DNA of 64,000 nucleotides from an uncultured virus (IMG/VR IMGVR_UViG_3300021387_000016). Taxonomy: Duplodnaviria; Heunggongvirae; Uroviricota; Caudoviricetes. Location: the IMG/VR virus record IMGVR_UViG_3300021387_000016; one strand, given 5' to 3'. The notes beneath the pieces were generated by a model. That model searched no databases and had not been told where the DNA came from. It saw only the letters and a program-made list of their open reading frames with translations. This document shows positions 25,339 through 27,925 of this stretch, piece after piece. How positions within the stretch are numbered: the stretch's first letter is position 1; each line of letters begins with the position of its first letter. The translations under genes were made by a program, and so were the position numbers.

Positions 25339-27925
<2,587 letters not shown>

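Follow-up and report, generated by a model that had tools for sequence, protein, structure and literature searches.

Within a 64,000-nucleotide stretch of DNA from an uncultured virus of the Caudoviricetes (IMG/VR record IMGVR_UViG_3300021387_000016), which we call the window, the plus-strand gene at 25339-27925 is, to judge from its sequence, a phage cytosine-5 DNA methyltransferase (C5-MTase) of the multispecific type, with multiple target-recognition domains (TRDs). Its catalytic Pro-Cys motif is interrupted by 10 nucleotides containing stop codons, and it is this insert, and the possibility that ribosomes hop over it, with which we are concerned here. By direct reading, window positions 25621-25650 are TAT TCG TTT CCT TGA ATGA CCT TGC ACG GAT, just as the original prediction had described them, with matched CCT codons and a TGA. 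The parts of the gene at and around this site are as follows, the first of them being an open reading frame (ORF).

25339..25632, plus strand: N-terminal ORF of the C5-MTase, 98 amino acids, from motif I (FAGYGS) to ...TYSFP, ending at the take-off Pro
25621..25629, plus strand: TAT TCG TTT, the codons 5' of the take-off codon
25630..25632, plus strand: proposed take-off codon CCT, the Pro of the catalytic motif
25633..25642, plus strand: 10-nucleotide insert TGAATGACCT, with TGA at 25633-35, TGA at 25637-39 and CCT at 25640-42 inside it
25640..25642, plus strand: proposed landing codon CCT
25643..25645, plus strand: catalytic Cys codon TGC
25643..26096, plus strand: rest of the catalytic domain (CTDLSIAGR..., ENV and QHRER motifs), up to the first repeat

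The family profile PF00145 matches 25339-25632 at profile positions 1-70 (E 1.1e-07) and 25640-26167 at positions 70-210 (E 2e-30), and with the last module of the gene the three pieces cover positions 1-70, 70-210 and 240-322 of 324. The profile breaks at position 70 on both sides, and the join therefore falls exactly at Pro-Cys. Motifs I (FxGxG), IV (PC), VI (ENV), VIII (QxRxR), IX and X (GNS) are all present in order, but spread over frames. Under standard decoding no polypeptide has a contiguous Pro-Cys, the two codons being separated by 10 nucleotides with two stops. Excision of these gives ...TYSFPCTDLSIAGR, which bears out the earlier claim that their removal restores a canonical YSFPCTDLS.

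The TGA at 25633-35 shuts the incoming frame, and the TGA at 25637-39, directly 5' of the second CCT, shuts the frame in which the methylase resumes, so that a simple +1 shift is unable to repair the gene. In the window a -1 shift, a +1 shift and readthrough all fail to join the halves, and only a 10-nucleotide skip does so. Alternative genetic codes were considered and rejected, as neither table 4 nor TAG read as Gln opens the gene or the neighbouring region. Selenocysteine incorporation or other TGA readthrough was rejected as well, because reading on past the TGA does not lead into the methylase frame and because other relatives have TAA or TAG in its place. The arrangement of a codon, a stop and the same codon again 6-11 nucleotides later is itself common by chance (529 occurrences on the plus strand of the window), so the weight of the case comes from the position of the insert and from comparative data.

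The insert is real DNA that recurs in independent samples. It is identical in the metagenome contigs L005 and L006, the first of which matches the window over 3,506 nucleotides and is probably from the same source, while the second is a different strain, with a synonymous ACG>ACA change four bases past the Cys codon. Logan contigs from three further studies (X2 record 1, X7 record 10 and X9 record 19, from runs recorded as animal-gut metagenomes) also cross the insert without an indel, X7 record 10 with 14 substitutions and no gaps. The insert is thus not peculiar to one assembly, which the original prediction had named among the conditions that would refute it; identical copies are present in contigs of at least three further studies. 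The exact window junction, with or without the 10 nucleotides, has no match in IMG/VR.

These contigs bear also on a reversible DNA switch, which had been put forward beside the hop, and in which slipped-strand deletion between two copies of CCTTG, a perfect 5-nucleotide direct repeat flanking the insert at 25630-34 and 25640-44, would remove the 10 nucleotides and turn the gene on in a subpopulation. Such a deletion would restore the canonical motif, in a gene otherwise full of hypermutable tracts, and might occur in variants too rare to be visible in contigs; but within that limit on rare variants the 10 nucleotides are kept in every spanning contig, from five independent assemblies. Moreover, direct repeats of 5 nucleotides at an offset of 10 arise often by chance, there being 180 of them in the window; most of the other insert types described below have no flanking repeat of such a kind, and the window and its relative L007 have retained the insert through a synonymous divergence (dS) of about 1. 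We regard the switch as the weakest of the readings and as very unlikely, while the hop has gained substantial support from the comparison of relatives.

A catalytic-domain similarity search gave 24 relatives, of which 19 have a plain ...SFPC..., one is without the motif and four carry an insert: L005 and L006 (10 nucleotides), L007 (81% identical, insert TGAATGCCT, 9 nucleotides) and L025 (TAACTT, 6 nucleotides), the last in an Anaeroplasmataceae metagenome-assembled genome. Among the best 80 of at least 552 IMG/VR relatives of the N-terminal profile, 78 are intact and two have inserts, TAAACTT and TAAGAACG. Searching with a degenerate pattern, Y-x-x-T-Y-S-F-P followed by TAA or TGA, found 48 IMG/VR loci, every one of them with a Cys codon 6-9 nucleotides further on; these represent nine insert types, the commonest being TAAGACCT (8 nucleotides), with 40 contigs drawn from many datasets. 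With TAG as its final stop the pattern added three loci (TAGTCA, TAGGCTT and TAGTGACCA), and a related contig in run X2 has an 11-nucleotide form.

The search for YSFP and a stop, which the original prediction had called for with a matched Pro codon to follow, has, then, been productive, with stop-first inserts recurring at the same codon boundary. There are 15 types in all, with lengths of 6, 7, 8, 9, 10 or 11 nucleotides, eight of the 15 not being multiples of three. All lie between the Pro and Cys codons and all open with an in-frame TAA, TGA or TAG, including the five types that were found without a stop in the search criterion (5/5). Among 150 loci we found no insert at Pro-Cys that was not stop-first, and Pro and Cys are adjacent in all 95 intact loci examined; the intact pattern has at least 113 matches in IMG/VR. 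Short proteins tell a similar story, as 1,045 proteins of 53-172 amino acids match the N-terminal fragment and 101 of the best 120 of these (65-100% identity; Logan, ENA, JGI and NCBI) end exactly at ...TYSFP, a count that gives no frequency because the search is blind to full-length proteins. Beyond these sources, tblastn against GenBank phages matched only Dulem virus 39, whose Pro-Cys is intact. The stop-first pattern was absent from 401 genomes of one phylum that were searched, and among the three genomes behind L025-L027 it was present in one, that of L025 itself; these searches brought no cultured phage to light.

We considered the possibility that the enzyme is made without any hop, either from separately translated N-terminal (residues 1-98) and C-terminal fragments or by a route that depends on the length of the gap (readthrough for 6 and 9 nucleotides, a +1 shift for 7, and a -1 shift for 8 and 11). 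Naturally split C5-MTases such as M.AquI do exist. Fragments of M.SssI complement each other, according to the portion of the published account that concerns us here (PMC3404938). Three of the 15 types have an in-frame start, namely L007 (TGA ATG CCT TGC, giving MPC...), L148 and the 11-nucleotide form, and an alternative frame between Pro and Cys is open in the 7-, 8- and 11-nucleotide types. In the other 12 types, however, the Cys frame has no ATG, GTG or TTG, and in seven of the 15 it is shut one or two codons before the Cys. The window belongs to both groups, its Cys frame having no start and being shut by TGA one codon before the Cys. It thus lacks a separately initiated second ORF of the naturally split type, and both of its other frames are closed as well. 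L427, a 9-nucleotide form, reads CCA TAG TGA CCA TGC, with tandem stops between identical Pro codons. The length-dependent routes fail for the window and for L427; each would insert 2-4 extra residues between two amino acids that are adjacent in every intact locus examined, and several mechanisms would be needed for one recurrent feature. Both versions of this explanation, fragments and length-dependent routes alike, appear to us improbable.

The triplet just before the Cys codon is of interest as a landing site. It is a Pro codon in five of the 15 types, identical to the take-off codon in four, and in all 15 it is at most one substitution from a Pro codon (CCT, CCA, ACG, GCG, ACA, TCA, CTT or CTA); the chance of such a Pro-like match is about 0.28 for each triplet, calculated at the 15.4% C of the window. 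The pattern is consistent with re-pairing; the shared ancestry of the types lessens its weight.

Whether genes with the insert are still functional can be judged in part from substitution patterns. The inserts of the window and L007 are homologous, differing in length by one base. Between these two the N-terminal half has a nonsynonymous divergence (dN) of 0.19 and a dS of 1.08, a ratio of 0.17, while in the C-terminal half the proportion of nonsynonymous differences (pN) is 0.116 against a saturated proportion of synonymous differences (pS) of 0.81. In the 12 codons from the gap to the first downstream Met, pS is 0.61 and pN 0.13, and the same stretch in five other insert-bearing genes gives pS of 0.43-0.86 against pN of 0.04-0.39. 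These 12 codons are conserved as protein, which argues that the stretch is translated in the Cys frame. By these measures both gene halves are under strong purifying selection, which extends to the codons right after the gap, and evidence of this kind says that insert-bearing genes are not dead. In five of them (L112, 8 nucleotides; L148, 7 nucleotides; L135, L153 and L025, 6 nucleotides) the downstream ORF is complete through motif X, and the inserts of L148 and L112 break the frame. Of distinct insert-bearing sequences, 28 of 36 end early downstream, compared with 65 of 89 distinct intact sequences; truncation downstream is no commoner with the insert than without it.

This evidence has to be set against the proposal that the insert permanently inactivates the methylase as a stable lesion, leaving the gene off or in some other role, and that the conservation is only apparent and reflects recent or repeated acquisition, for example through short gene-conversion tracts that spread between co-infecting phages. 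The window copy does have many other frame breaks, most members of the family end early after repeat tracts, the inserts may have been gained repeatedly, the 20 codons just before the gap are unusually alike in the window and L007, and the 11-mer 5' of the gap is common to several clades (both features are discussed below). Yet selection on both halves and on the 12 codons after the gap, the five otherwise complete genes and a frequency of downstream breakage no higher than in intact genes all argue the other way, as does the shared end of the best short homologues. A random lesion would not, moreover, be expected to hold to one boundary, to begin with a stop and to leave a Pro-like triplet before an intact Cys. 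We consider an inactivating lesion rather unlikely.

Of the single explanations, the one with the best support, though unproven, is a short programmed bypass in translation, made by peptidyl-tRNA-Pro; we put its probability at roughly one half. On this reading the catalytic Pro and Cys codons would be held apart by a "coding gap", the 10 nucleotides at 25633-25642, which would themselves be non-coding. The ribosome would decode ...Tyr-Ser-Phe-Pro and pause with peptidyl-tRNA-Pro on the CCT at 25630 and TGA in the A site. The tRNA would then unpair, the mRNA would slide by 10 nucleotides, and re-pairing would take place with the identical CCT at 25640. Decoding would restart at TGC to give the canonical ...YSFPCTDLS... 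in a single chain, while terminating ribosomes would release the 98-amino-acid fragment. The bypass product would have the junction peptide ...YSFPCTDLSIAGR, and its junction tryptic peptide would be expected to end ...LLTYSFPCTDLSIAGR, with no extra residues. This one mechanism would fit every insert type, peptidyl-tRNA-Pro leaving at the stop and resuming beside the Cys codon, always to give FPC. We infer the bypass, its efficiency and its purpose; what leads us to favor a hop is the exact placement of the insert with both frames closed, its recurrence, the selection that followed its arrival, the scarcity of starts, the tandem stops of L427, the Pro-like triplets and a precedent in phage Hau3 (see below). 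A Pro codon followed by a stop is also a slow-termination context.

Several observations weigh against a hop. An exact landing match is found in just four of the 15 types, and the others would need near-cognate re-pairing; decay of a duplicated Pro codon could yield a similar pattern of triplets. The sequence TAT TCG TTT precedes the take-off codon in 14 of 16 insert-bearing local haplotypes and in none of the 59 intact ones in the sample, but a control search found 58 intact IMG/VR MTases, some closely related, that share the same 11-mer, so that this bias is not exclusive and may reflect ancestry or target preference instead of a signal. A quick, unfinished tree calls for 4-6 gains or losses of the insert. 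The window and L007 have an unusually low pS, 0.15, over the 20 codons that precede the gap, which could come from a constraint imposed by recoding or from recent conversion of the tract, and the dN/dS argument presumes that the insert is older than the split of these two, a situation that gene conversion over a short tract could mimic. The fold of 25596-25690 showed no stimulatory RNA structure (z = 0.14), no hairpin is common to 12 insert types, and no gap Shine-Dalgarno sequence was found at the window insert. A phage-encoded tRNA-Pro or suppressor tRNA was rejected, as the window encodes only tRNA-Gln, -Leu, -Tyr and -Asn. In E. coli, stop-hops that lack stimulation have low efficiency. 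Finally, the window copy as assembled would give no full-length enzyme even with a hop, because of frame breaks at repeats and homopolymers further downstream.

Small pairings do exist near the gap. One of them, confined to the window and L007, is possible between UUAUUCG (25616-25622) and UGAAUGA in the gap (25633-25639), forming a 7-base-pair hairpin (25616-25639) that places the Phe-Pro codons UUUCCU in a 6-nucleotide loop and is not significant by z-score. In the TAAGACCT clade, an upstream CUUAUG can pair with CAUAAG across the take-off codon and stop. These pairings may be a trace of the origin of the inserts, as templated quasi-palindromes, or a small aid to bypassing.

To our knowledge, natural examples of bypassing are very few, and comprise T4 gene 60 with its homologues, the byps of yeast mitochondria, and the candidate Hau3 blocks. 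By analogy, the closest precedent for the methylase is the last of these. In the sections of Antonov et al. (2023, PMC10732093) on which we draw, 10-nucleotide and 7-nucleotide blocks are proposed to be bypassed in the terminase genes of Streptomyces phage Hau3 and of the StrepC.1/S. catenulae prophage; Hau3 has a pair of 10-nucleotide blocks after a rare UUA, the 7-nucleotide blocks are those of the prophages, and the case rests on a junction peptide seen by mass spectrometry in E. coli and on the conservation of the junction. In both settings, as far as those sections go, a frame-breaking block of 7-10 nucleotides lies at a conserved junction with a slow-to-decode codon in the A site, and the same argument applies, that frameshifting would add residues at an invariant junction. 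The methylase thus shares the short block, the slow codon, the invariant junction and retention of the block among relatives. The two differ in that the terminase trigger, as presented there, is UUA, a sense codon that is rare and linked to the host's supply of tRNA, whereas in the methylase it would be a true stop after Pro. Blocks are reported there in 3 of 100 genes, compared with 15 insert types in many gut and rumen phage contigs, and the strong predicted flanking structures and internal Shine-Dalgarno sequence described for the terminases were not found at the methylase gap.

T4 gene 60, in the part of the preprint bioRxiv 10.1101/2022.08.31.505936 that bears on this comparison, likewise has matched codons and an adjacent stop, as the window has with CCT at 25630 and 25640 and TGA at 25633-35. 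The T4 gap, however, is 50 nucleotides, compared with 7 between the Pro codons here (a 10-nucleotide hop), and the methylase gap has no take-off stem-loop, no Shine-Dalgarno sequence and no known nascent-peptide signal. Within the 1.5-3 kb of flank scanned, the methylase has no linked MobA-type homing endonuclease or mobile cassette of the sort described for T4. Homing-endonuclease immunity, on the analogy of MobA, was rejected as an explanation for the inserts: Pfam scans of flanks of the same extent place a GIY-YIG domain next to one of 12 insert-bearing genes (L025) and one of 22 intact genes (L035), which is no enrichment, with none at the window gene.

The synthetic "stop-hops" of E. coli also offer a comparison. 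As outlined in the relevant part of the review by Atkins et al. (2016, PMC5009743), which cites Weiss et al. (1987), 9 nucleotides there specify one amino acid, the peptidyl-tRNA passing a stop to reach a matched codon a few nucleotides further on. Those were laboratory constructs of low efficiency, whereas the methylase would be a natural, conserved family, and its gaps are both in-frame (6 and 9 nucleotides) and out-of-frame (7, 8, 10 and 11 nucleotides). No natural occurrences of in-frame stop-hopping are known according to the same part of that review (PMC5009743), and in the literature on bypassing and on split phage C5-MTases, supplements excluded, we found no description of the Pro-Cys site.

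It is plausible, if somewhat less likely than not, that a whole clade of gut and rumen phage C5-MTases is expressed only via obligatory short-range hopping of 6-11 nucleotides with landing on a Pro or near-cognate triplet; no elaborate RNA structure would then be needed and gap lengths in any frame would be tolerated. The repeats after the catalytic domain might in addition serve as zones of frame choice, mutational or translational, that select among TRD modules. What makes the site worth pursuing is that a stop-first gap occurs at one invariant dipeptide in independent phage contigs numbering in the dozens and in some hundred protein clusters at 90% identity, and that gap length, stop codon and landing triplet already vary naturally among them. 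If the bypass is real, this would be the first large natural "stop-hop" family in bacteria or their viruses, and a minimal, sequence-diverse model of a ribosome paused on Pro-stop that resumes downstream. It would also mean that gene callers and methylome predictions systematically mis-annotate a common class of gut-phage methylase as truncated, and that a gene already packed with mutational switches has a translational layer as well. Should bypassing be refuted, an insert that is confined to one boundary and always stop-first, in genes with conserved halves, would still need a new explanation.

The rest of the gene is rich in repeats and homopolymers, which are listed here together with the modules in which they lie.

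25568..25574, plus strand: G7 tract coding RGGD, within the N-terminal ORF
26097..26145, plus strand: (ACGA)12.2, a perfect tetranucleotide repeat; the frame differs on its two sides
26146..27511, plus strand: array of TRD modules in all three frames (tblastn with intact relatives, frames 0, 1 and 2)
26174-26184, plus strand: A11 tract in the TRD array
26424-26484, plus strand: (GACA)15.2 in the TRD array
26716-26723, plus strand: G8 in the TRD array; a frame change coincides
27102-27153, plus strand: (AGAGC)10.4 in the TRD array
27345-27352, plus strand: second G8 in the TRD array
27512..27925, plus strand: last module, TRD and motifs IX-X (..YKQAGNSIVV..), profile positions 240-322 of PF00145
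27568-27576, plus strand: G9 in the last module; a frame change coincides

Besides the Pro-Cys insert, the methylase gene has about ten frame changes, located at repeats or homopolymers, and eight hypermutable tracts: G7, (ACGA)12, A11, (GACA)15, G8, (AGAGC)10, G8 and G9. Four of the seven runs of six or more G in the 64 kb fall within this 2.6-kb gene, and the modules of the TRD array (26146..27511) are recognizable as "..PTITA", "..PALTA", "..PTILA", "..PTLSA" and "..PTIPT". The other long genes of the window are intact. Of 50 short ORFs in the 28-46 kb region, 10 match a PHROG family, in several cases along almost the full length of its profile; that region therefore consists of small genes and not of broken ones, and the frame breaks are specific to the methylase.

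Across the family, 65 of the 89 distinct intact sequences end early and 16 are complete, which indicates that the catalytic domain and the TRD modules are usually in different frames. The downstream frame breaks are thus a family-wide trait, and there may be a repeat-driven choice among target-recognition modules. The repeat arrays offer an identical codon 4 or 5 nucleotides away at every position. Contigs L005, L006 and L007 end inside an (ACGA)n tract and G001 just past it, as would be expected if the length of the tract varies within samples, and the G7 at 25568-25574 is G8 in a run X2 contig, one difference between samples. Phasevarions, known from the host Type III mod genes of Haemophilus and Neisseria with one simple-sequence repeat tract, offer a parallel in the long perfect tetra- and pentanucleotide repeats and poly-G in a methylase frame and in tract length, which differs between samples at the G7/G8 site. 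The present gene differs in being a phage multi-TRD C5-MTase with eight tracts, and its Pro-Cys insert, itself no repeat tract, is stable from one sample to the next.

The three long perfect arrays (26097-26145, 26424-26484 and 27102-27153) are the only such arrays in the 64 kb, and each codes one peptide repeat in all three frames: ERTN, DRQT and SRAEQ. In many relatives from IMG/VR and metagenomes whose Pro-Cys is intact, the catalytic domain leads into linkers of the types (DRQT)n, (SRAEQ)n and (ERTN)n, the ORF stopping a few codons after the repeat; these are L008, L028, L038, L042, L045, L048, L050, L054, L069, L071, L073, L078, L080, L083, L086, L089-L091, L100-L102 and L104. Several poly-G tracts sit at the GGG of TRD motifs. 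The 40-member TAAGACCT clade has three reading-frame outcomes at the poly-G tract after "...TVRGG", and stops in its N-terminal half at five loci.

At a module boundary at 26930-26960 of the window, a frame ending ...LEIWKKK and a stop is overlapped by ATGGAAAAAGAAATAATG (MEKEIM...), with a change of -1 at G AAA AAG, which resembles a -1 slippery site. In L002 (65% identical), a frame change occurs at the homologous boundary (3700-3735), where ...IEWREKTKSK and a stop meet MERENQIEMI..., and the boundary could be either a conserved frameshift site or a hotspot for indels in A runs. Upstream of SFPC, (ACTT)n/(TTAC)n codes ...TYLLTYLLTY... in L002 and L010 (2950-3000) and in L009 (500-560); L009 is out of frame at (ACTT)n, and the short database proteins P0023, P0030 and P0065 look like frameshift products of this tract.

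The window as a whole is phage DNA of 36% GC, and the neighbours of the methylase gene encode a replisome organiser, a PAPS-reductase-like protein, an SMC/AAA protein and a LexA-like repressor. The phage tRNA genes mentioned above are four in number, located within 56130-61531, and are Gln-TTG, Leu-TAA, Tyr-GTA and Asn-GTT. A further possible homopolymer switch is a G8 tract at 22686-22693, inside the PAPS-reductase-like gene (22280-23161), which is itself intact and lies two genes upstream of the methylase.

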